This document shows positions 20,091 to 35,792 of a stretch of 64,000 nt of DNA, in pieces. The stretch lies in assembly GCA_973895155.1 (NCBI GenBank), contig OZ316892.1:29022932-29086931 (forward strand), given 5' to 3'. Origin of the DNA: Marsupella aquatica. Taxonomy: Eukaryota > Plantae > Marchantiophyta. A program made the position numbers and the translations under genes. Each line of letters starts with the position of its first letter. The first letter of the stretch is position 1. Under the pieces are notes generated by a model that was given only the letters and a program-made list of their open reading frames with translations, was not told where the DNA came from and did no database searches.

Positions 20091-22216
20091 TCAATATATT
20101 GGGTGTGGATTAGGAATAACAGCTCGGGGCCAAATGCTACTATCGAGCACAAAGAGGACAAGAATGACAAACGGGAAGCTACAGTAATTGTGATGCACTC
20201 TAGCGTATATTACGAAGAGACTTGCTTGCTGCACTGTACACTACCCTGTTAGTGTTGGATGTTGGTGTTGTGGTAAGGACGGAGACTTTGATCTCAACTC
20301 AGACTGCCATGAAGGGATTCAATCCTGGGTGAAAGCAATTTCCAGTGTGAAATTCTTCGGGACTCGAAGAGAGACAACTCGAGCTATATTCCCGCACATT
20401 GTAAACCTCCATTTGACCACGGGCTGCGTTTTCGCGTGACATTCTGCTTCGAACTCCATCAGAACACCCAGACGAGCTTTCCGCCGAGAAAAATATGCAA
20501 CCACCGTGAAAGATAGCCTGGCTGGAGCCCTGAGTCTTTGAGGTTGAAATTTCTCGCCTCCGCCACCACCGATCATGTCCTGAGACTCAAATCAACCTTC
20601 ACCACCCGAATTTACACCAACCACAAACAACATAAAATTCTAGGGGACTGCAAGATCGGCACTAATCCACTGAATGCACTTATCCACCGCGCACTTATGG
20701 TGGAGGATTGTATATATGTCACGGCACTCAACAGTTTCCCAGGTTTGACGTGAAAGTCTCTCGTTCGCCTGTCCCGAATCACAAGGCACACAAGGGCAAG
20801 GATGGAGTAATCAGGGCCAGCTTGACGTCACATGAGTACAATACTGTAATTCATTAATTGGCATGATTGCAGCATGAGAGGGCTATTGGATTTCGATTGT
20901 TGACCAATAACCGTGGTGTGTGACTCTTTAATTTAAGGTGAGATTGAGGTATCATTTATAAAAAAAAAATTATTGGAATGCTTGATTTGGCAACGAGTAT
21001 TATATCAAAAATTCTGCTAACACCTGTTATTGAGTGAGCTAGCAATGCGTTTAATGGACCGAATTGTTGCTACAGCTGACTGCAAAATTTGATTGGATTG
21101 AATTTTAAGTTCAGATGATTTATTTTATGTATATATCATGAGCTTGTTTGACACACTTTGTGTTGCTTGAGCTGCGAGTCTATTATGGAGAAATTCTTCT
21201 TGACAAACTTAACTATGTGATGCGTTCATTCACTCTTGCTCAAACTCTACTACACGCAGTTTCCTTCTCAAAGAGAATTGGGGGGTAATGTTTGACATGT
21301 GGGAATGCACCAAACAAAGATCCCACTGCATGTACTGCTCCTGAAATTACTGTACGGTCCTACTGTCACACGACTTGCATTGACAGTAGCAATTCACCCT
21401 CAATGGCAGGAGATGCCATGAAAAACTGCGGCCAAAATCTCTTTACCAGTCAAAGGTGAACTGGGTGGGAGATGAAAACGACGCATTTCTCCAATAAAAC
21501 GTGCATGTGCTGTGAAGAGGACACGGTCCCCCTGTTGTATTGTGTCATCTACCACTTTCCATTCATTTGTTATTCAGGCACGCGCTTCCTTCAACTTGCA
21601 CAACTACATTATCAGGACTTTTTACGTGTTACATGAAGACGTTAAGCCCGACGTCTCCTTGCTGCTAAAGAAAGGCGACATACTCGACGTGAATGACGGC
21701 ACGTTTTGTACGAAGTAACAAAGGTTACAGTTTACATCGTCCAAAACTACGTTACATACGTCAGTCCATACTACGTTACATATTAACGTCGTAAATAAAG
21801 ACGTTATTCTGGACGCAGATTGAACAGGGAAATCAGCTGATAACATCGTTTAAAACGACGTTAATTTCAGATTACGTAGTTTGTGACTTTGTTAATGATG
21901 AGTCTGTCCAGGACGTATGAGTAGTTAGTCGTGTGAGGCTTGGTAAAAATGGTGTTAACGAGAACGTTTGAAAATAGTACCAAGAATGGAGAGACGTGAA
22001 TGGAGTGCCGTTTGTGGTAAACATTAATCTTGTATGGAACATCCTTCCAGGCTACCTTAGTTGGGTGGGCTTTAGGTTTAGGTTCATATACACACGGAAT
22101 ACACATAAATAGACATATGAAGTCCGGAATGCCACTATAAATGGGTGGTGTCAAAAGTTTGTGCCAAAAATGTACAAAATGCAGGTGGACGTCCACCTAG
22201 TCATGCATGGTATACC

Positions 22217-24389
22217 CTAATGCCGCTGAGAGCGGCTCCTATCACGTCCAGACCTGCGAACAGAAATACGTGGCGGTGCCTCCGACTGTTTGCCTCGGGG
22301 CCGCAACTCGTACCGAAGTGGATCCTCGTCTGAACTACTTCTACCAGACACCAACTCCACAGCTCCCTTGCCTCTACTCCTAGGGACTACATCTCTAGTG
22401 CCACTGTGTCCCCTAGTGGTATCCCTCTCGACACGGCTCCTCTTCCTCTCTCTATGTCTCTCCCTCCCCCCCCTCTTCTCTCTCTCTCTCCGTCGTCTAT
22501 GGCTGGTATGACCCCTATCAGTCTCCACTGGAGGGGAGAGGTTAGAAGATGACCGGCCCTGTGTACCTAAACTGCCCTCCTGCCCACAGTCTACTAAGGC
22601 CTCCTCCTGCGTATCAGGCTCCTCCCCTCCATGATCTGCCTCCTCATCTTCCGCAATGGGTCGTGCCACTAACCCCTCTGGAGGACTCCAATCCTCCTGG
22701 ATATGACATAAGGGATCAGTTTACCTCCTGCAAATAGTGGATGCAAAACCTAGTATAGAAGGAACCTAACCTGACCATGTAACTTACCACTGGGTGGTCC
22801 TCCGGGACTGAGTCCAGCTTAGCCCATAGGGCCGCCGGGCCATAGCGTTTTGAATAGAGCCGCTCCTGCTCACTTGGCTCGGCGTTAGCTCCAAACTTGC
22901 GTTTCTGCAGGAAATTGGAGAACGTCGTCACCATCGTCGTTAACTACAATGTACCTAACGACGTTTTATAATTAACGTCGTCCAAGACAAGGTATATAGT
23001 GAAACTTCAATATTAACAATGTAGAAAAGACGTTAATTAAATGTAACGTCGCGAGAGACGACGTTAGGTAGGATGAACGTATGGGGTCTAGATGTTAAAT
23101 TTAGAACTTGCGATGTTAGAGGAGAAAAACAACATTAATTCAATGTTCTCACCGCAGCGGCCGAAGCATGAACAAGTTGTGCTTTGAAGAGGGTGGGGGA
23201 CTTACATAGGTTGCAAGGAAGCCTCGCCATCCTCCCTGGCCCCAAAAATTGGTCACATGCAGGCGGCCATTTGATTTGCGGGCTGCAGTAGCTTTGTCCC
23301 CCATGTGCACTCGCTTGCCTATTGGGGTGTCAGGTGCTGCTTCCAACTCAGCCACGATCAACTTGAAGTCGGCGTCGCTCATTCCTTCTGGTTTCAGGTA
23401 TTGCTCTGTCCTTGGGCATCTCATTTTTCGAACCTTGTTTCTCCATCTAAACCTCCGATCTGCAAGGTAGCCTACGATCTTTTGTCTGATGTGCCTATAG
23501 TCTATTTCATGGCCGTTCCTAAACCCAGCTTGCACATCGTTCAGGAGGAGCTGAAACTTCTTTGGGTTCTGCGCGAGATCCTTCCAAGTTGTCCAACCAG
23601 GACAGTGCTTGGCACAACACGTCTGCACTCGATTTGTGAGGGCCTTCTCATCCAGAACATCCGGCCTAGCATCAAACGCATCCAAGGTGATGGTTGGGAG
23701 TTTGTCTCGACTCACAGCAGTAGTTACCGGTCGCGCAGGAGAAGGTTGTCGCTTCTTGTGGGAGTGACGTTCACGCTGAGGTGAGTACCTCTCTCTTCTG
23801 TCTGCCCTTGCATCTCCCTCTGTTCTTCTTCTTTTGTATGTACCTCTACTGTGTGGATCTGCATCTCTATACTCCTTCCCTTTCCCCTTCCGTCTTCTCT
23901 CATCAAGGCTGCTATTGCTGTTGTGTGTTCTATCACGATGCCTCCTCCGCCTGCGAGAGTCCTGATCAGGCTGGAATCTGTCATGTGCTACCCGGACCAC
24001 ACTCTTGATTGGGGTCCCACTAGGTGCCTGAGAATCAGGCTGCATTCCATTGAAGGCAGGATCGTCCCACCCATCATCTAGTAGGGACGGGAAGGAGTTC
24101 AGAGCATCGATCGAAGGCCCCCCATCCTCCCCCAAGAGCGTTGCATTCTCAGTTTCCACATAATCATCAAGGTAGGAGCATTGGCCTCTATATTTTCCAG
24201 GTACTCCAGAAACTGAGACTCCTTGCTTCCTTTTCCTCCCAAGAACTTCCAACTCTAGTTGAAAGCATGTATCAGCGAATGTGTCGATTGCATAGCTTTA
24301 CGCACCTTTTCTAACTCCCCTGGATCATCCATAGCCACCAAGTCTGCATCAAAATCTCCACTGGAAGGGAGATAGCCTGGATGAGCCAT
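22217..24389 (-). CDS. TnpA/Tnp1-like (Ptta/En/Spm-type) accessory protein, spliced
   Basis: The main exon 23206-24252 has the W-K-D-L...F...IVGYLADRRFRWRNK...P.GMS..DF..IV...H..NFWGQGGW pattern that resembles CACTA ORF2 proteins. GT-AG intron 22905-23205 (phase 0), then exons at ~22720-22904 and 22217-22669. The start exon (~24389) is uncertain. Confidence 0.6.
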
Positions 24390-24810
24390 AGTCTTTCACT
24401 GTTAAGATAGGAGGTCGAGAGGGGGAGAGGGGAAGTGTTGAATGTTGAATGTGAGTCACATTCAAGTCACTTCCCGATGTTTTGTTAAAGGAAAACAGCC
24501 GTAGCCCACGAACCTTGGAGACCCGCCGTTACCCTAATTTAACGTCATTAATCACAACGTTAACCAAGAGTGTAGGGTTTAGCGGCGACGTTACATATAA
24601 TTACGTCATACCTAACGACGTTAACTTATTAAGTACGTCGTACATTATTACGTAAACTAAATTCGGCAACCTCCCCACAACCTAAAAAACGACGTTAATT
24701 TTAGGGGAACGTCGTGTGGATGGACGTTAGTTTGGTTAACGTAGCGGGATACGTTTATGCTTGGGGTTTAATATGTTGTGGGGGCCTTTGTAAATTTGAT
24801 CACAGGGGAC

Positions 24811-27800
24811 ATGGCAACCTATGCATCGGACCATGATGGGGGCAGGCATCATCGGCACAGATACCATCATCATCATAGGGGGACGTATGATGAGTCGGAT
24901 AGGCGAAGGGATGACTCGTGTGACAATGACGATGAGCATGGCGGTAGTTCTCACCGACATAGACACCATCATCGGCATAGGGGGAGTTCAGCTTCATCGG
25001 GCCATAGGAGCAATGACGAGCGGCAGAGGAGGAGGGATGACGAGGGAGGGAGGAGGAGGGATGACTCATCCTATGAGGACCATGGTGGGGGTACTTACAC
25101 CCGACGCAAAGATGACCATCATCATAGGGGGAGGGACGACCTGTCGGACCGGGAGAGAGATTACTCACCAGACATGTATGATCGATCTAGGCGTCACCGA
25201 TCCAGGCGTCGTCGACGCAGACATGGTTCCGATGGTAGGAGAGGCCGGAGCCCCCATCATGCTGATGGATTTGGAGAGGCCATGGCTGCTCTTCAAGGGA
25301 TTGGGCCAATTCGCAAGATGCCTTGCCCTTGCAGACGATGCAAGGGTGTTGTCTTACACGAGAGGACCACTGTCCTTAGCCATTTAGGGATCCATGGTCG
25401 TTACACCCCCCCGACCCGAGAGGTAATACAATTTTGTTGGGTATTGCAATTATGATAACATCTCCTTCCTTGAATTGTTTTTTTATTGTCATATTCTGAA
25501 CTTGTTTTGGTGAACATGTGGAATAGATTCCTGTTGTAGTGCGATCTTCGCCTGTGGACCGCTTGAGAGACATTGCATATCGTGCACTCGCACCACTCGT
25601 CCATCCATCCGATTTGCCAGCCACATTGAGGGAGATAGACCGTGTATTTTGGAGGAGGAGGAGAGTGTTTAGGATGCACCCTATTGAGAGGGGAGTAGTG
25701 GTGACCACTAGACCCCGATCGATTGAGTCCCGTCCACCTAGGATTGTTCCGCCCCGATGCCCTTTTCTTGATGCATCGGTGTCCCGGGCACCAAGACAGT
25801 TGCGAGGGAGAGCCTTGGACATCTTAAAGGACTCCTTCCCAGCCCAGTTTGGACTCCATATGGACCTCCCGCTTTGGGAGCCTATTATAGTTTGGGACCG
25901 CCCATGGGTCATCCTCCCCTCCACATTGGGGACTCATGTAGGACTTGGAGTATTTGCTCTTGTGGATATCGTGGTCCCTACCGGTTGTGCACCCGATGAT
26001 TTGCCTCAGTTGTTTCCATTCTATGGGCCCAAGTATTCGGCGGCAAGATGGCGCATCTTGTCCCGACAGTGCCCAACCTTTAGTCGATATGGCATGTCAC
26101 TAAAGTTGGACCCTAGGTATGCTCAGATTGATGGTTACCCACCTCGCACAGGGAACTTGGCGGGTTACATCAATAGCACTGTTGGTTCTCGGCGTTCAGG
26201 GTTTAGGCCAAATGCTGAGTGGCACGAGTTCCATGACCAGAGTCACCCTCGTTTGCCTGTAGCATGCACGCATTACATCTTGACACATGCTACCCGCACC
26301 ATTAGAGCAGGGGAAGAGATTCTCGTAGATTATGATTGGCATTGATGTTTACATGTGTACATGACATATTCATTATGGGGTGACCCTTGCATTTTTCATT
26401 ATTGATGTTTCACTGTAAGCTTTATCACGGAAACCCTTTCTCTAATTGTTATTTGTCATTGCATATTGAAAACTCTAGGATGGTGTACATATTACTCCCA
26501 CACCTCACCCATCAATGATGACTACATCAGCCCGTGCCTTTCACGTACGTGCCACCTTACATTTCTCAGACGAGGAGGATGCTGAGGGTCAGCCCCTTGA
26601 CCATGATGAGATGGACGATGAGGATGAGGAGTACCATGATGCATATGATGGAGAGTTGGATGATGATGGAGAGTTGGATGATGATGTTGACGATGAGGGA
26701 GATGAGGGAGATGAGGGAGATGAGGGAGATGACCCTATCCTTGAAGAAGATGCCTTCGCCCACCTTGTTGACGTTCACTTTGGACCTCATGCATCTGACG
26801 CCGAGCACCCTATCATGGAAGTGGATCAAGAAGATTGGGATCACTTGGAGACTAAAGCCAGAACACCACTATTTGAGGGATCTCCATCCTCACAGTAAGG
26901 TTGTCCTAAAATTATCACAACTCTGGAATTTCATCCAGTGAATATTGGGCAGTCTAAATTGTAGTGCCAGGCATGCCATCTAGCTACTTGGACTAACTGC
27001 AAAAAGTCTGGTGTTTGTGGTTTTGCAAATCCAGGTTGGGTGCAACTTTGTTGATGTTGAATTTGCAAGGAGTTTTCAATGGTTCGGATTTCCATACAGA
27101 TGCACTCTTCCAATTGTTCCACGGCAAACTCTTGCCCCAACCAAACACTCTCCCTGGATGTGTGAGGGAGGCTAAGAAGTTGTTAGCCTCAATTGGATTG
27201 GCTTTAGAGACTATCCACATGTGCCCAGGTGGGTGCATCTTGTATAGAGGGGTGTACAAGGATCACACTCACTGCCCAGAGGAGCACTGTAGGCTTCCAC
27301 GGTATCGACCAGACACCATTGGAGACAAGATTGCAGAAAAGGTAATGTTTTCCTCAACGCAATGTGAGAACAAGAAAGTCCAACTTTTAACGTTGCATTC
27401 TTTCAAACAACGTCGTACATGACTATGTAATTGATTACTTTACGTCGTCCATCTCACTTTATGTCTTTCCACCTGACGTTTTTTTGTTTTTACGTCGTAT
27501 GGGATGCAGTAACTAACGTCGCATGGTACATTAGGGTATGAAACGTCGTCCTTTACGATGTTAGTTTTAATAATACGTAGTGTGGAAGGACGTTTATTGT
27601 GATTGTCGTCAAATTGACGACGTTACATTGGATCTGGCAGGTTTTTCGTTATTTCCCAATCACTCCCCGACTTCAGCATCTCTACCGACGAAAGCACTTA
27701 TCCACACTACAGACTTTGGCATGTGGAGAACAAATCCCCACCAGGGATAATGCAATACCACCAAGATAGTCCAGCGTGGAAGCACATTGATGCCACTTGG

Positions 27801-30482
27801 CCAAATTTTGCCCAGGAGCCAAGAAATGTTCGTTTGGGGTTGGCAATCGATGGAGTGAACCCATATAAACAACGACGGAAGCCTAAGTCCATCTGGCCTG
27901 TTCTTTTGATAAATCAAAACATCCCTCCATGGTTGGCAATGAAGAAGGGTCATGTGCTTCTATTAGCTATAATTCCTGGACCCAAGGCCTGTAAGAATCC
28001 TGATATCTGTTTGGCTCCAGCTTATGAAGAGCTACATAATCTATGGGAGGTTGGAGCAGTGACAACAGATGTCACTCGTGAAGCAGGCAATGGTAGGACC
28101 TTCAATATGAGGGTGATGATCACTCATTGCACCACAGATGGTCCAGGTAATTCATTGGGCAACCCAATGACTATTGTTTGCACAATGTCATGTACAATGC
28201 AAGTGTTGGGGTTATTTGTGGTCTGAACATGGTTCAATGAAATGGCAGGTATGGGGACAATATCTGGCCTGAAGGTGGCAGGTTTTTCAGCTTGCCCTTC
28301 ATGTGGCCCAGAGTTGCGTGGGAGGTACTCAAGACTACTGCACAAAACCACATATGAGGGCAGTAGGGTCTGGTTGGCAATGGATGACCACTTGCGACAA
28401 AACACAACACATTGGGCAGAGACTGAAGTGCGGCCATGTCCTAATGGCCCTTCAGCTGAAGGACAAATTCAAATGGCAGAGAAGGTGGAAGCAAAGTTAC
28501 TAAAACCCAAGGATTGTGGAGTAAACCGACGCTAAGCTATGTGGGACTTGCCTTATTGGAGGGTAAGTGATAGAAGTGCATGGTTCCTTTACAGCAAATT
28601 AGACCAATAAAATTCTTAATTTAGAGATTGCAACTGATTCAATATGTTATTTCAATTTCCAGAGACTCCAGGTTCGATGGTTGTTGGACCCCATGCACAT
28701 TGAAGTGAATGTTGCTAAGAACTTGGTGAAGCACATTTATGGGACGAATGACACTCGTGGAGTCCGAGAGGATGCTGAGAGGGTTGGAGTAGTGAAGAGT
28801 TGTTGGATAACACGTACTGGGGAGAAACCTCCTGGTCCTTGGATTTTGCCAAGAGAGGTTTTGAAGGACATGAATGGGATGATAAGCGAGATGAAGTTCC
28901 CTAGCCATTACGGAGCTGGTTTTCGTGGGTGCACTACAAGGAATGATCACATACCCCCAATAGGGTTGAAGTCTCATGATTATCACAAGTTGATACAGCA
29001 TGTGCTACCAGCAGTCATGCGTTGTTGTGATGATTCCTGGGAGCGTCGTTTACTCCGTCTGACTATATATGAGATGTGCTCCATTTTTAGGTATGATAAC
29101 GTACCCTCTCTTCCATTGCTCTCTTGCAAGTTCTTGTTACCGCTGAAGGAGCCATGTAATTCAACAAGTATTTCAAACTCATTTTTCTATGGCCCTATGT
29201 GGATCTGATATACAAAATCTTTGATGGTTTTGAGGAGGAACATAGGTGGGTATGCGCTAAGGAGATAAAGGAGTCTGAGATTCCTTTGATGAGAGAGAGG
29301 TCAGCTCGCGTGATGTGCAATATGGAGAAGGTGTTTCCCCCATGCATATTTGACATGCAATTGCATTTACTATGTCACTTGGTGGATGAGGTCGCGATTG
29401 CTGGTCATGTCCATGCACGTTGGATGTATTGGGTAGAGCGCTTCATGAAAGTGCTCAAGTCCATGGTGCGTCAACCAGCTCGACCAGAGGGAAGTATGGC
29501 AACGGGGTATATCATGTCGGAGTGCCTCTTTTATTCCGGAGGGATGATAGGGATTTTGGACACATAAGCTCCCACAGCTTGGGAAGAGGCACAAGATGAT
29601 GACAATGGTGGGTTGCGTTTGATGGGTGCATCAAAAAAGCGTTCACTACATGACAACATACTTCGCCTACAGATCCACAATTATGTGTTGGGAAATCGCC
29701 CAGAGATGTCTCAGTGGAGGGAGTTGCATAGGTACATATATGCAACTCTATATAACTGTTAATCTAACAGTAGACGTTGTTCTACATTCTATGTGTGTAG
29801 AAGTTAGAGTGGGTTCAAGGAGCACTTCTTTGGATTGTGCAATATTCTCATGGATTCATACATTTTTTGCAGTGCATTCTTGGAGCAGCAACCGATAGTT
29901 GCACAACGGTATGCATTATTTCGCGTATGGGCATTGGAGCGCATGGATAGGCTCCTTGAAGAGCATGGGCCCTTATCCATTCCCATTGATGTACAGAACA
30001 TCATTAGGGGACCAGGGTTGTGGGCAACGACCCATACACACATGTATGAGTCAGGGCACCACTTTCGCACTTGGAGGACAGATCACATGAAGAAGAGTAC
30101 ATGTAACTCAGGAGTGTTCATGTTGACAGACCCAGGTGATGTTGAGATTCCCTATTGTGGCACTATATTGGATATTTTAGACGTTCACTTTGGGTCATTT
30201 ACTACTATTGTGTTAGAGGTGCGGTGGCACAAATCCATCATGTCACCTCCACATAGAGCCACCATGGTGAAAGATGAGTGTGGGTTCTATCGGGTAGACA
30301 CGACTCGTGTAGCACCATCCGGGACTGAGGTTAGTGACACTATAGTATTTCCTAGCCAGGTGGATCAGTGTATTATGGTTCCGATGCACACTATGAGAGG
30401 ATGGTCCATCGTCATTCCCATCTTCCCACGACGGAGGAAGGGTTTGATGGCATCAGTAATTGTAGATGATATGGATCCATGA
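24811..30482 (+). pseudogene. CACTA TnpD/Tnp2 transposase gene (transposase-associated domain, Transposase_21, DUF4218, DUF4216), multi-exon and disabled
   Basis: Exons 24811-25422 (CPCRRC...VLSHLGIHG), 26479-26894, 27035-27341 (IHMCPGGCILY), 27641-28147 (VFRYFPITPRLQHLY, DSPAWK, EPRNVRLGLAIDGVNPY), ~28249-28562, ~28662-29090 (LDPMHIEVNV, GLKSHDYH), ~29246-29731 (HLLCHLVDE, RWMYWVER, PEGSM) and ~29872-30482. Lesions: a frameshift near 27715 and premature TAA at 28533-28535 and 29565-29567. Confidence 0.9.
25527..26345 (+). CDS. SET-domain protein (putative lysine methyltransferase), encoded in the first intron of the CACTA transposase gene
   Basis: SET motifs in order: VILPS...GLGVFA (motif I), PFYG (motif II), GNLAGYINS...PNA (motif III-like) and ATRTIRAGEEILVDY (motif IV with the catalytic Tyr). 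The ORF is uninterrupted. It has no in-frame ATG at its 5' end but has a phase-0 AG acceptor at 25525-25526. Confidence 0.85.
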   Translation: MPVVVRSSPVDRLRDIAYRALAPLVHPSDLPATLREIDRVFWRRRRVFRMHPIERGVVVTTRPRSIESRPPRIVPPRCPFLDASVSRAPRQLRGRALDILKDSFPAQFGLHMDLPLWEPIIVWDRPWVILPSTLGTHVGLGVFALVDIVVPTGCAPDDLPQLFPFYGPKYSAARWRILSRQCPTFSRYGMSLKLDPRYAQIDGYPPRTGNLAGYINSTVGSRRSGFRPNAEWHEFHDQSHPRLPVACTHYILTHATRTIRAGEEILVDYDWH

Positions 30483-30997
30483 CCATAAATGTATTCAGTG
30501 CATGTATATATTCGTTATGGCCACCTTCATGTGGGTTTGTAGCATCTGTGGGTAACGTCGTTGTATGACTATTACGTCCGGTAGACCAATGTATCTTCAA
30601 ACTACGTCGTATCAGGCAGACGTTAATTCCAATTAACGTCGTTTTATTGAGCCTTCAACGACGTTAATTTAGCCACGACCCCGTTTACGTTACTCCACAC
30701 GACGTTGATTCTCCACTTAAAACGATGTTAAACTAACTTACGTCGTTTTAGGGTACGTATTAAACCAAAGATGTCGTGTATTGCAACGTTACTATATCCG
30801 CGCGACGTTAATGACAGTGGTGACATTAATTGGCACATGCATTCAAAATGAAAAACATGAGGGAGTCTTTATTCAGTTTCAGTATGATATAGAGATACAA
30901 AGGTCCTACAAAGCACATTGCATGTCCACCACAAAGCGACTATAACCTAGCCGAATCACTAAACTGCCTCATCCATTGACATCCAGATTGTTGCTAC

Positions 30998-31558
30998 TTA
31001 AGGAGTTCCTTCACCAGACCAGTAGTACTCCTCATCTGCCTTCCTTCTTTTGTAAGAATCACGCCTCTGCCTCTGGTTCCATTTCTTCCGGACGACCTCT
31101 TCCCCAGCCTTTAGCCTTTCAGCCTCAACCTCAGCTGCACAACTTTCCTTGTAATCATACAAGACAATGTGAAGCTCAGTCGGAGACAGCTCACATTTGG
31201 GCAATGTAGGTGGATATGCCTCCCCATCATCTGGGTTGGGCGCCTCATCCAACATCTGATCATCACCTGGATGCAGCAGGAAGTCTCCTGGATCCAACTG
31301 TTTGTTGGCCAGAATTGAGCACTCTACCCAACGGATAGAAATGAAATGAACTGTCTCTGCAAAGTGCTCGATCAATCCATGGTAGTCACTGAAGTGCTCA
31401 ACAACTTCTTTCCACGTATAGGCCAGCAAGTAGTCTGTTTCCGAGGTACACAACTTCTCAATAACACCTCCCCGACAAAAGAACCCACGTATAGTCTTGT
31501 CCTCTTCACCAAGTGGAAGGAAGCAACAATGCACATCTTTGAAGAACTTGCGCACCAT
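30998..31558 (-). CDS. Hypothetical CACTA cargo ORF (186 aa; upstream frame degraded to ~31760)
   Basis: Open frame with a charged C-terminus, between two ACGT-motif blocks inside the element. No family recognised. Confidence 0.4.
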   Translation of the reverse strand: MVRKFFKDVHCCFLPLGEEDKTIRGFFCRGGVIEKLCTSETDYLLAYTWKEVVEHFSDYHGLIEHFAETVHFISIRWVECSILANKQLDPGDFLLHPGDDQMLDEAPNPDDGEAYPPTLPKCELSPTELHIVLYDYKESCAAEVEAERLKAGEEVVRKKWNQRQRRDSYKRRKADEEYYWSGEGTP

Positions 31559-32181
31559 GACTGAACACTGAGTCTAGATCCCACGCTGCAATTTCTCTGT
31601 ACTCAGGAAGAGTGCATTCTCCAAAAATCACAAATGCAAGCCTACTTTGGTCTCAACACTCTTAAACCAAAATCCTCCCGTAGAAAACCCAAGCTATACT
31701 TGAGTCAGCATGGACTACTCCTCATTCAAGTCGTCCACACCGATGTACTCAACGTCTAACATGGCTTGATTCAATCGGAACGTCCTACAGAGCAACGTTA
31801 CCACTTTTACGTCTCCCTCCACGACGTAAACATTGACGTCGTTATACCCTAAACACATTACGTCCTCTAATACGTCGTTAATATTGAACGACGACCAAAA
31901 CGACGTTTAGGACAGCTCATCCAGAGACGTTAATTTTAAACGTGTTTCCAGCGACGTTAAAATGGGGGCAATCGGCGCTTAGATTTCTCCGACGTCGCCG
32001 TTACGTCGGACGTAGTTATAAACGTAGTCATGGAAGTCGTTAATTATATTAACGACGATTATGAGGAGGTATTGTTTGCATCCGACGCAACAAAATCTAG
32101 TTGTGTTGAGACCAGCAAGCTGATGGGTTGGAGCAGATGCTGGTAGTTCCTGAGCCATTTGAGGTATCACCATGGCCGGCC

Positions 32182-33993
32182 TCAGCAACCTTGGCCATCA
32201 ATATTCGGCCTCAAGAGACCCAGCAACTCTCTCGGATCCGCCTGCTGAAGAAGTGCACCGGTTACCTTACCGGCATGGTCATGCTCCAGCACGTCCACCA
32301 GGGGATACAGCAGTTCTCCAACCATTGCTTTTGTATCTACAACAGGTCCAGAGGCCAAAGCAGGGATACTCTTTGCAACCGGCTGGGGCGCACCAGCATC
32401 AGCACGGGGACCATCAAGCATATCACCAGTCACGTCTTGTGTATTCCTTGCAGTAGAGGTATGTCTGATATGTAGATTCTCTCTACGAACCACCATTTGC
32501 TGTGCATGCTGTTGTTGCTGCCGTGGTGCTATAGGGCCATGCATGCCTCTTGCAAGCTTGTGACCATTGTGCTGATTCTGGCTAGGAACAACAGGGGCGT
32601 AGAAGTTTGGATTTTGCCCACTTCCAGGCTTGTCGGCAGCAAACATCTGCTGCTTGTACAAGAAATCAGTAGGCTCCCCGGGATTGAGTTCCAAAGGTGA
32701 TTGCCCGTAGGGATATTGTGCTACAATTCTTGGAGCAAAGGGAGAATAAATTGGTACGCTGGTCGGGGCGCCAACAGAGGTCTGTAGCCAGGCACGCCTC
32801 GCCTCTTTACATCGAGCAGGAGCAACGTACAATGGTTTGCTACCAACCATCCTTCGGTTCATGTAAGCAACCGCACAGTGGGCTTCTTCCAAGGTAGAGA
32901 AACACACAAAACCTGAGCCTTTACTCTGACCGTCAAGGTTCCAGTTAACTTTACACGACTTGATGATTCCAAACGGAGCGAAAAGTTCCCCAAGCATCTC
33001 ATTGTCAACAGTGTCATCCAGATTATTTATGTAAAGATTGGTACCGTGCTGTAGTTGACTCCTTTCTTTGCGCTCTTGTTCAAATTTTTCTCTCCCTACT
33101 TCCATTTCGGATTGCGTTTTTGCCCTTCTTACATACCACACTTTGCCATCAATGGGCTTCCCATTCAACGCCTCGACTGCCTTTGCTGCATTGTCGGTGT
33201 TCTTGAAGTTGACAAAACCAAAATGCCTGGAATTACCCTCACTATCCAGAATCACAACAGCACGTCTGATTTTGCCGTAGACTGCAAAGCGTTTCTTCAG
33301 CTCCTCGTCTGTGGTAGTTTCGGCAAAATTCTTAACAATAACATTCTTGAAGTTGGAAGCGTCACAAGAGCGATCCCTCTCCTGACGACAAACAAAGCGC
33401 TCGACAAGAACCTGCTTGTTGTTGAAGAGCATACCATTTGTGTTCTCAATGGCGCTCTGTGCTGACTCTTCGTGCTCAAACTGCACGTAGCCATAGCCCT
33501 TCGATTGCCCGGAGTCATCTGTGGCAACCTTCGCGGAACGAATGGTCCCAAACTTAGAGAACTTTTCGGAAAGGGCCAAGCTGTCAATAGATTTCTCCAA
33601 ATGCTTAATAAAAATATTACCAATTCCTTTTTTCCGACGACTAGAGTCACAGGTTATAGGCGTGATTCGGATGGGCTTCCCATTCACCAGAGTAAATTTT
33701 TCCAATCCCAGAGCTAGTGTAGCATCTTGAGCAGTTTTGTAGTTGTTCTCGGCAAACCCAAGACTCTGCCTAGTGATCTGATCACGAAATATGTGAATTG
33801 AAACTACCTGGCCGACCTGACTGAAAATTCCATAAAGCTGATGCTTTGATACACAAGGGCCCAAATCACCAACACGAAGGGAGGTTGACGGCCCGGTTGA
33901 CACAATCCGAGAGGGACTGGCTGCCTGGTGCTGAGTTTGGGCTTCAATTTGAGACATCGCTTCTGCTAGGTCTGCCCTCTTTCTCTGAATCAC
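32182..33993 (-). pseudogene. Intronless polyadenylate-binding protein retrocopy (4 RRM plus a frameshifted MLLE); its last codons lie at 21574-21598, beyond the CACTA
   Basis: GNIFIKHL...SKGYGYVQF, NLYINNL...SKGSGFVCF and KAMVGELLYPLV...HAGKVTGALL. No introns. RRM1 RNP motifs are degenerate. MAKVAEA appears in a shifted frame. Confidence 0.85.
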
Positions 33994-35792
33994 TAGAGTT
34001 TAGATCTCGGACCTTAGAATTCACTAGAATCCGAAATTTGGAATTCATTGAATATGGGATTTGGGAATTCCACGCTCGGAGAAAACCGTAGAAGTCTTAG
34101 CTCAACAAAACACCACGATACTCACTCTCCCCCTTCGTACCTGTGCTCTTCTACATTGCAAACCGACTGCTTGACGAAAAAGGTCTTTATTCCAATCTGT
34201 CTTACAAGCCCCACTGTCCAATCATCGTAGACGATCAACGTTCTGTTGCGGTGCTTGGCGCTTCAGCCAATGGTTTGGGAGTGAGAGAGACGGGATTCGG
34301 CGAGGGATGAAAGACAAATGTGAAAGAGAAATGCGCGAGCAAATGGGATGAAAAGAACGGGAAAAGAAGTGGGATTGACTACTGACAGGACCAAGCTTTG
34401 CACGTCACCTGTATGTACATGGGGTCAGCCAGATGACAGAAAGTGTTATGGACTGCGAAACACGCATACTTATAGCTGCTGTCCCAATTTCACTACCCAA
34501 TCATTGACGATCAACCTTCTGGTGTGGTGCTAGGAGCTTCAGGGAGGCGTAAGAGAGAGACCATTGAACAGGGTTGGCATATCCCTTGAAAAGCTCCTCA
34601 TATCCAACCGACTGTTGATAATCACTCTCCCTTAGTTTCAGTTTCCATGCCAGTCCTCCTTTGCCGTTCCGCCTTCTGTTTTCAAAAGTCTATGGTTTCA
34701 CTGTCCAACAATTGACTATCAACCGGAGAGGAAAACAAGAAAAGCCTGGCTATGCAAATGCTCCTTCGATACTTTGCCACAGCTGACAGAAACTAAATGA
34801 TTGTGATAGATGACAACAAGTGATATTGATTGACCAAGGACAGGACCAAAGTTCTACCAGTGCCAGAAGCATTCGCCGCTGACAGGAAGTGGCACTGAAA
34901 GCAGAAACACCGTTAGCTACTGTTTCGATTCACAAAGTTTAGCCTCTACCTTCCTGAGTGGGTGAGACCGGAGTTTGTGGACAGACTTCTTTGGCAATAA
35001 TGTGTGTTTGGCACCGAGCATCCACGGAAAAATCTCCATTTCAATGAAAATTATAAATCAATCAAGCATAGCACTGTATAAGAGGTAGCCTCTTATATTG
35101 TCAAGAGGAAGTGAAAAAAAAAACTTGGACGAACCTGAGCTAGGCAACCACGTTATAACATGTAACGCAGACTTACCCCTGATCTTGGTAGCTCTTGCTG
35201 TGTTTTGATGGTAGGAGCGTAAGTCTAACCTTGGAAGGAACCACTTGCATGAGCACGTCAGTCTCGTGGATCGAACCACTTGCATGAGCAGTTCAGGTCT
35301 TCACCGTAGAGGTGCACACAATTCTGGAAAACTTGAAGCACAGAAATTAATTACTCCTGGAACAGGCACTGCCGGAAGATTCAAGAAATTCCCCATGAGC
35401 TTGGCTGTTGTCATGTCAAATGTATGCACCGGCCATTACACCAAACGAAACAAAATTCAGGATAAAGCTAGTCTAAAAATCTCCAATTTAGCTTATTCAA
35501 GCTATCTGCGAGACCGCATAAAGAAAATTTTGGAGATAAGATAATTACTTCAAATGGCAAACCAAAGCTACACACTTGAAACGAAAGTATTCAAATCTCG
35601 CGAAGATTGAAGAGAGCCGAAGAGGAATGCTGGAAGTCAGATAGAGTAAGTGGTACCTCCGATCACAAAAGCGGCACGATGCAACTCAGCCGAAGAGAAG
35701 AGAGAACTTCAAAAGAGAGAACTCGAATTTGACATACTAAATTCCACACACTGCAACAAAAGCAAACTCACCTTTTTTCTTAGATGGTCTGT

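Follow-up and report, generated by a model that had tools for sequence, protein, structure and literature searches.

We analysed a window of 64,000 nucleotides from the liverwort Marsupella aquatica (contig OZ316892.1, positions 29,022,932 to 29,086,931 of the forward strand), which holds a complete transposable element of the EnSpm/CACTA superfamily at positions 21599-32105 (10,507 bp; all positions are those of the window). The transposase gene of this element, of the TnpD type, carries in its first intron an open reading frame (ORF) for a SET-domain protein on the same strand, and an earlier note on this DNA had proposed that this frame is an alternative exon of the transposase gene. The element is bordered by a target-site duplication, TTG (21596-21598 and 32106-32108, plus strand), and by terminal inverted repeats (TIRs), of which the left starts with CACAACTA (21599-21610, plus strand) and the right ends the element with CACAACTA read on the minus strand (32094-32105), the two agreeing at 11 of 12 bases. 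The CAC..GTG termini, which serve as a criterion for EnSpm/CACTA (PMC12730594), are thus present as short inverted repeats, together with the 3-bp target-site duplication and subterminal repeated motifs. The CACTA pentamer of the strict flowering-plant elements is absent, and because the ends read CACAA instead, the element is assigned to the EnSpm/CACTA superfamily only and not to strict flowering-plant CACTA; a search for the canonical CACTA terminus returned matches at chance level only.

Exon 1 of the transposase gene (24811-25422, plus strand, 612 nt) encodes a tract rich in histidine, arginine and aspartate followed by a CxCxxC..H domain (approximately 25324-25383), referred to below as the zinc finger, and ends at a phase-0 donor, GAG|GTAATA. 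The zinc finger matches Transpos_assoc (PF13963) with an E-value of 4e-5, under the cut-off of that family, and its three cysteines and histidine are invariant in all ten aligned relatives. Two acceptors lie in frame with the donor. The nearer, AATAG|ATT at 25527, is reached across an AT-rich intron of 104 nt (25423-25526, plus strand, GC content 0.30), retention of which leads to early stops; it joins exon 1 to the SET exon (25527-26345, plus strand, 272 codons and a stop) in a frame of 476 amino acids with a single terminal stop. The farther, CTAG|GAT at 26479, lies beyond a second AT-rich segment of 133 nt that runs from the SET stop to this acceptor (26346-26478, plus strand), is likewise in phase 0 and marks the start of the second transposase exon, which is acidic. 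The earlier note had placed the phase-0 donor and both in-frame joins at these positions, with a fusion of about 476 residues, and had described the SET frame as intact beside a transposase with one frameshift and two stops; on recomputing the coordinates we found each of these statements to hold, the lesions lying near 27715 and at 28533-28535 and 29565-29567. The first ATG of the SET frame is codon 50, downstream of the conserved N-terminal helices, so that the whole SET exon needs a start upstream of it.

The SET exon encodes two N-terminal helices, a linker and a SET core that begins at about residue 106, with the GxG motif at residues 139-141, Asn216 and, three residues before the end of the chain, Tyr269. 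The fold that the earlier note had read from motifs is borne out by profile and structural comparison. The ORF matches PF00856 with an E-value of 2.8e-5 (24.9 bits against a cut-off of 22.4), as its sole Pfam domain. An AlphaFold model of the exon has a mean confidence score (pLDDT) of 73, with most of the core at 80-95, and the top 50 solved structures matching it are all SET or PR domains, with a Foldseek E-value of 2.5e-7; structural comparison by VIA gave a Z-score of 12.7 and a root-mean-square deviation of 2.5 Å over 124 aligned residues. The first Atlas match for the protein, at 0.96, is a SET cluster whose commonest phylum is Streptophyta.

The cofactor-binding and catalytic residues of a SET enzyme are near-invariant in the family. 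The GxG motif of SET enzymes binds S-adenosylmethionine (SAM), and in an alignment of 90 relatives, with gaps excluded from the counts, its glycines are kept in 72 of 75 (Gly139) and 73 of 76 (Gly141); the cofactor-binding asparagine, Asn216, is kept in 79 of 81, the glutamate of the GEE/GDE motif, Glu264, in 72 of 72, and the candidate catalytic tyrosine, Tyr269, in 69 of 72. The C-terminus of the model aligns to residue 338 of SET7/9, which would place Tyr269 at SET7/9 position 335 if the alignment is ungapped, the position of the catalytic tyrosine of SET7/9; the end of the SET domain also aligns to that of SETD8. We class the product of the SET exon as a SET-fold protein that probably acts in the manner of a methyltransferase, and not as a proven enzyme. 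Residue 165 is phenylalanine in the window and tyrosine in 57 of 79 relatives, and may match a tyrosine of EZH2, from which we draw no conclusion. In EZH2, the change of that tyrosine to phenylalanine favours trimethylation (PMC3868588).

Relatives of the SET protein are numerous and divergent. A single-sequence search found 18, at 38-63% identity, a profile search found 88 (among the best 7,997 candidates scored), and a full HMMER scan gave 149 clusters at 50% identity, of which 91 reached an E-value of 1e-10 or better; the families range from 31 to 68% identity to the SET protein of the window. The named relatives come from Calypogeia fissa, Riccia sorocarpa and seven Sphagnum species, and two distant members lie outside this bryophyte-named set: Gb_21150 of Ginkgo biloba (P0227) and a metagenomic locus, L003:392-835, in which no exon 1 was seen. 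That locus and two others, L001 and L002, came from a metagenome scan (three of 110 pattern matches). In comparisons between families (the window, L001 and L002), nonsynonymous divergence (dN) is 0.52-0.58 and the proportion of synonymous differences (pS) 0.73-0.85, with synonymous sites at or near saturation; codon identity is 0.33-0.37 at third positions and 0.63-0.66 at second positions. These values support strong purifying selection on the SET protein between families. A quick-search tree of the 97 of 221 rows with a whole SET core, rooted at the midpoint without a canonical outgroup and informative on subfamilies only and not on a donor, places Calypogeia nearest to the window among the named relatives. 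As to other sources, no SET-family relative was found among 110 pattern matches in viral contigs, and only one weak match among 66 in prokaryote genomes; viral SET structures are at most 24% identical to the SET exon, a sequence search of the PDB with the SET protein gave nothing significant, and none of the named relatives is a canonical SET gene of a host.

The arrangement around the SET exon is also conserved. L002, at approximately 50% amino acid identity, has the low-complexity tract, the CxCxxC..H domain, the phase-0 donor, the phase-0 SET acceptor, the stop and the short intron, as well as a phase-0 acceptor into a homologous acidic transposase exon, and L001 keeps the phase-0 donor of exon 1 and the phase-0 SET acceptor. 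Conservation of the acceptors, which the earlier note had singled out as a check on its proposal, is therefore found in L002 for both of them and in L001 for the SET acceptor, and phase 0 is retained in all three loci with DNA for exon 1. Among 306 proteins, the zinc finger precedes a complete SET core in 17. One of these is an ORF from a Logan contig, and the other 16 are gene models of Calypogeia fissa, Riccia sorocarpa and five Sphagnum species. As the Sphagnum fusions are close kin, the 17 amount to about five independent lineages. When only whole-SET proteins long enough to include exon 1 are considered, the zinc finger occurs in 14 of 26; most of the other SET matches are short contigs that start inside the SET exon and are uninformative on the spliced product. 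The conserved splice phases of L001 and L002 and the gene models of three bryophyte genera argue for a SET isoform that shares exon 1 with the transposase, and the anatomy and its conservation are well supported. Use of the near acceptor at 25527 would probably end the message after the SET stop, with skipping to 26479 giving TnpD, and the layout, with a SET exon in the first intron of the transposase gene, appears common to related elements of mosses and liverworts.

Read depth marks the element as a repeat of which the SET exon is a standard component. We found no second copy within the 64-kb window; in all four sequencing runs, read depth climbs steeply at the left TIR and at the right end of the element and is high throughout it. 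All four cover the SET exon 0.68-1.62 times as deeply as the transposase and 21-156 times as deeply as the flanks, by summed contig depth, a rough measure that gives no copy number; the runs are of unrecorded kind, with introns and flanks also covered. Among the joints in read contigs that were listed (15 of 56), none was a clean GT..AG junction, and a look-up for 24700-27400 listed no RNA record; neither outcome has a bearing on splicing. One diverged contig stops matching the window shortly after the SET stop and matches again from the transposase acceptor onwards (26347 to 26476), as would be expected if the SET exon were constrained and the intron were not; other contigs show similar breaks at the introns of the transposase.

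The remainder of the transposase gene comprises seven predicted exons on the plus strand (26479-26894, 27035-27341, 27641-28146, 28249-28562, 28663-29090, 29246-29731 and 29873-30482). Its product matches PF02992 (Transposase_21) with an E-value of 4.7e-39 and PF13960 (DUF4218) with 6.2e-29, and the C(2)C and H(3-4)H motifs are present in the translations as CPSC and HLLCH. The extra base at the frameshift and the first stop, which break TnpD in this copy, are missing from other copies. To the left lies an accessory gene on the minus strand (22217-24389), with exons at 24389-23206, 22904-22788 and 22696-22217 predicted from ORFs and splice sites. It is transcribed divergently from the transposase and lacks one base near 24170 relative to other copies. 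No Pfam family matches its product, the Atlas match at 0.88 is unnamed and a single-sequence structural model reaches a pLDDT of only 48; a TnpA-like DNA-binding role for it is a guess by eye. A third ORF of about 185 codons (30998-31573, minus strand), convergent with the transposase, is covered at the depth of the element and matched no Pfam family.

Six non-coding islands within the element have an observed/expected CpG ratio of 1.7-2.2, compared to 0.63 in the remaining window. They lie in the left subterminal region (21599-22000; ratio 1.72, with 37 ACGT per kb), in an intron of the left gene (22900-23110; 2.18), between the two divergent genes, where a shared promoter is likely (24500-24760; 2.0, with 46 ACGT per kb), in a transposase intron (27346-27640; 1.73), 3' of the transposase (30530-30830; 2.0) and in the right subterminal region (31740-32105; 2.07). 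The window holds 18 copies of the motif ACGACGTT where 0.85 are expected, a total that none of 100 shuffles attains, in a test that is generous since the motif was chosen from the same data; 17 of the copies fall within the islands. A CpG motif also lies upstream of exon 1 in L002, but it is a different one. The islands resemble the target clusters of the anti-silencing proteins VANC and TnpA; they may serve the left gene alone.

We propose that one pre-mRNA of the transposase gene would be spliced in two ways, to give either a protein of zinc finger and SET domain (476 amino acids) or one of zinc finger and transposase, and that the first, a predicted lysine methyltransferase dependent on SAM, would work for the element. 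The shared zinc finger, with the DNA-binding protein of the element, would dock the SET form at the six CpG motif islands, and the mark that this form writes there would keep the promoters of the element open. Splicing, catalysis and purpose are all inferred, and they differ in strength. We lean, with somewhat better than an even chance, towards the explanation in which a conserved SET exon and two-way splicing yield a predicted SAM-dependent lysine methyltransferase that serves the element. The residues of the catalytic chemistry seem to have been kept across the family and the lid, the post-SET region, dropped; it is slightly on the probable side that the SET protein is nevertheless active, most plausibly with the pocket, normally closed by the post-SET region, sealed instead by a partner or a second copy. 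The SET isoform may be brought to the islands, but docking there through the zinc finger, followed by a mark that opens the promoters, is a tentative idea and rather unlikely to be right as a whole. The most extended version, in which an old and widespread land-plant clade of CACTA elements uses splicing to toggle between a transposase and a lysine methyltransferase without a post-SET region, guided to CpG islands to write an anti-silencing histone mark, we regard as doubtful.

A number of observations weigh against this proposal. The pyrimidine tract of the SET acceptor is poor (four of 15 bases), the fusions of zinc finger and SET are predicted gene models with no reads behind them, the pattern used detects no zinc finger in 12 of the 26 long whole-SET proteins, and the named models nearest to the window on the tree, Calypogeia P0008 and P0011, are without exon 1. 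The left gene, as a source of the DNA-binding partner, has no backing from Pfam, Atlas or fold, and the structure of the SET protein gives no cue to its substrate, with COMPASS/MLL, SETD8, SETD7 and PRC2 all within one Z unit. The catalytic assignment has its own difficulties. SET lysine methyltransferases have an NHS or NHxC motif, and the window reads NST at that site. The histidine is replaced by serine in the window and in 68 of 81 relatives and by asparagine in eight, and is not among the five commonest residues at the site. The NST over which the earlier note had doubted activity proves to be a trait of the whole family; the loss need not be fatal, because the cofactor is anchored by the side chain of one conserved asparagine and by backbone atoms, with a C-terminal tyrosine as the catalytic residue (PMC3178901). 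The missing post-SET region is the stronger worry. The chain ends three residues past Tyr269 in the window; three residues follow the tyrosine in 38 of the 70 rows that keep it (the window included) and at most five in 51 of 70, and a stop falls within 18 residues in 69 of 70, so that the region expected of SET lysine methyltransferases is lacking. The same review describes the post-SET region in all SET methyltransferases, as completing the cofactor and substrate sites, and ties the inactivity of PRDM constructs to a very short one (PMC3178901).

The near-absence of this region, with its precedent in PRDM, and the loss of the NHS histidine make a non-catalytic binder the main rival to an active enzyme: the spliced isoform would be a pseudo-enzyme, incapable of methyl transfer, that binds SAM or a methylated lysine or serves as a decoy to chromatin writers of the host. 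However, the GxG motif, the asparagine and the terminal tyrosine are near-invariant across families of 31-68% identity, as catalysis would keep them, and although cofactor binding alone could preserve part of these residues, we hold a pseudo-enzyme to be improbable, if a serious contender. An active isoform could also act on the element as a brake or switch, by methylating the transposase or an accessory protein or by writing a repressive mark that limits the element. The N-terminal domain common to the isoform and the transposase could bring the two together, the structure favours neither activating nor repressive writers, and in bryophytes the silencing of transposons works through H3K27me3 or H3K9 methylation (bioRxiv 10.1101/2022.10.24.513474). 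Two tested transposon-encoded chromatin factors, VANC and TnpA, are however anti-silencing, and the motif islands are rich in CpG, as if kept unmethylated, which leaves a braking role unlikely.

Three further alternatives concern the gene structure itself. The SET ORF could be an independent gene nested in intron 1, with a start of its own and no part in exon 1, as is suggested by the methionine that several relatives have at the start of the conserved helix, by the ATG that opens the SET exon of L002 and by the many public models that consist of SET alone (192-263 amino acids). The window has TTG at that point and no ATG before codon 50, the two exons are merely 104 nt apart, phase 0 is kept in three of three loci and fused models occur in three genera, and we consider a nested gene quite improbable. 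More improbable still is an internal SET exon in one long SET-transposase fusion, a mobile analogue of SETMAR. Three models (P0040, P0212 and P0244) and a 200-residue fragment (P0254) join SET to transposase, which confirms the linkage of the two in Riccia, and P0084 does so by eye; the SET core is partial in each of P0040, P0212, P0244 and P0084, as expected of predictions on decayed copies, and the stop that follows the tyrosine so closely in nearly all rows argues against reading on into the transposase. CACTA elements do capture fragments of host genes, and the earlier note had allowed that its SET exon might be such a passive capture, confined to this copy. What we find is a SET depth like that of the transposase, 149 clusters of relatives, dN far below synonymous divergence (dS), the same position in distant families and named matches free of any canonical host SET gene, and we give passive capture next to no credence. 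A SET exon that alternates with the transposase exons thus remains the structure that we favour.

SETMAR is reportedly a fixed host gene in which a host SET domain is fused to a mariner transposase; our element resembles it in having SET and transposase sequence in one gene, and differs in being a mobile unit whose two products are apparently alternatives. Another parallel is Plavaka PAG2 of red algae, also in the EnSpm/CACTA superfamily, which carries SET as cargo with a proposed part in chromatin modulation, its function untested (bioRxiv 10.1101/2025.02.11.637652). In PAG2, SET is fused to an N6-adenine DNA methylase in an accessory gene apart from the transposase, whereas the SET exon of our element lies within the TnpD gene and has PF00856 alone; the Plavaka termini (TGT..ACA or CATCA..TGATG; PMC12730594) are absent, and the element is a non-Plavaka one from a land plant. 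SET genes are also cargo of DNA transposons in HarbingerS and oomycete MuDR families (PMC12730594) and, by capture, in Helitrons (PMC12730594; Bostrychia preprint), which belong to other superfamilies and hosts and hold SET in accessory genes, the available text mentioning no shared transposase exon. SET cargo is thus listed in several transposon groups, with no functional test reported in the accessible portions of these sources. The earlier note knew of no plant CACTA family with SET; we likewise found no land-plant case, in a literature search by titles and the openings of abstracts, with Repbase, preprint supplements and most subscription papers outside its scope, but SET cargo as such is known from other DNA transposons, including Plavaka of the EnSpm superfamily.

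Production of two proteins from one gene has its model in Spm of maize and Arabidopsis, where TnpA and TnpD arise by alternative splicing or from separate genes; Arabidopsis TnpA, a helix-turn-helix binder that acts at the termini, binds clustered family-specific motifs, which are used for self-activation, and brings about local hypomethylation via host demethylases (bioRxiv 10.64898/2026.08.24.746577). The Marsupella element would share with Spm the two spliced products and the clustered family-specific motifs; unlike TnpA, its alternative product is a predicted enzyme, and its motif clusters are found at four internal sites as well. The main text of the same preprint has no word match for SET domain, methyltransferase or bryophyte, and its survey of 962 Spm proteins has unlisted 'other' domains that could include SET. 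In VANDAL21, the motif clusters to which VANC21 binds lie in introns, between genes and at the termini (PMC5735166), and the short family-specific motifs of our element are clustered in the same kinds of non-coding DNA. VANDAL belongs to the MuDR superfamily and VANC is no SET protein, whereas the transposase here is of the TnpD type; motif binding and hypomethylation are demonstrated for VANC and conjectured for our element.

If the proposal is correct, an element would bring its own catalytic writer, where VANC and TnpA are sequence-specific binders, TnpA needing host demethylases, and no host enzyme would have to be recruited. The bryophyte element offers a tractable case, with two putative splice forms, one candidate enzyme and motifs that may be its targets, and is of interest for SET enzymology in that catalytic residues are kept though the post-SET region is nearly gone. 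Naming the left gene would be of interest because the 2026 preprint reports TnpA-like proteins only from flowering plants. There is also a consequence for annotation. Three protein clusters, P0046, P0055 and P0056, have 360, 75 and 112 members, many of them annotated as SET-domain proteins in Sphagnum genomes, and these members are likely transposon products counted as host genes. Models labelled 'SET domain-containing' in Sphagnum, Riccia and Calypogeia are likely often of this kind, and may make host chromatin writers look more numerous than they are.

Outside the element, 76 bases from its right end, lies an uninterrupted ORF of 605 codons (32182-33999, minus strand) with four RRM domains and an MLLE domain, of the poly(A)-binding protein type, which is possibly a retrocopy.

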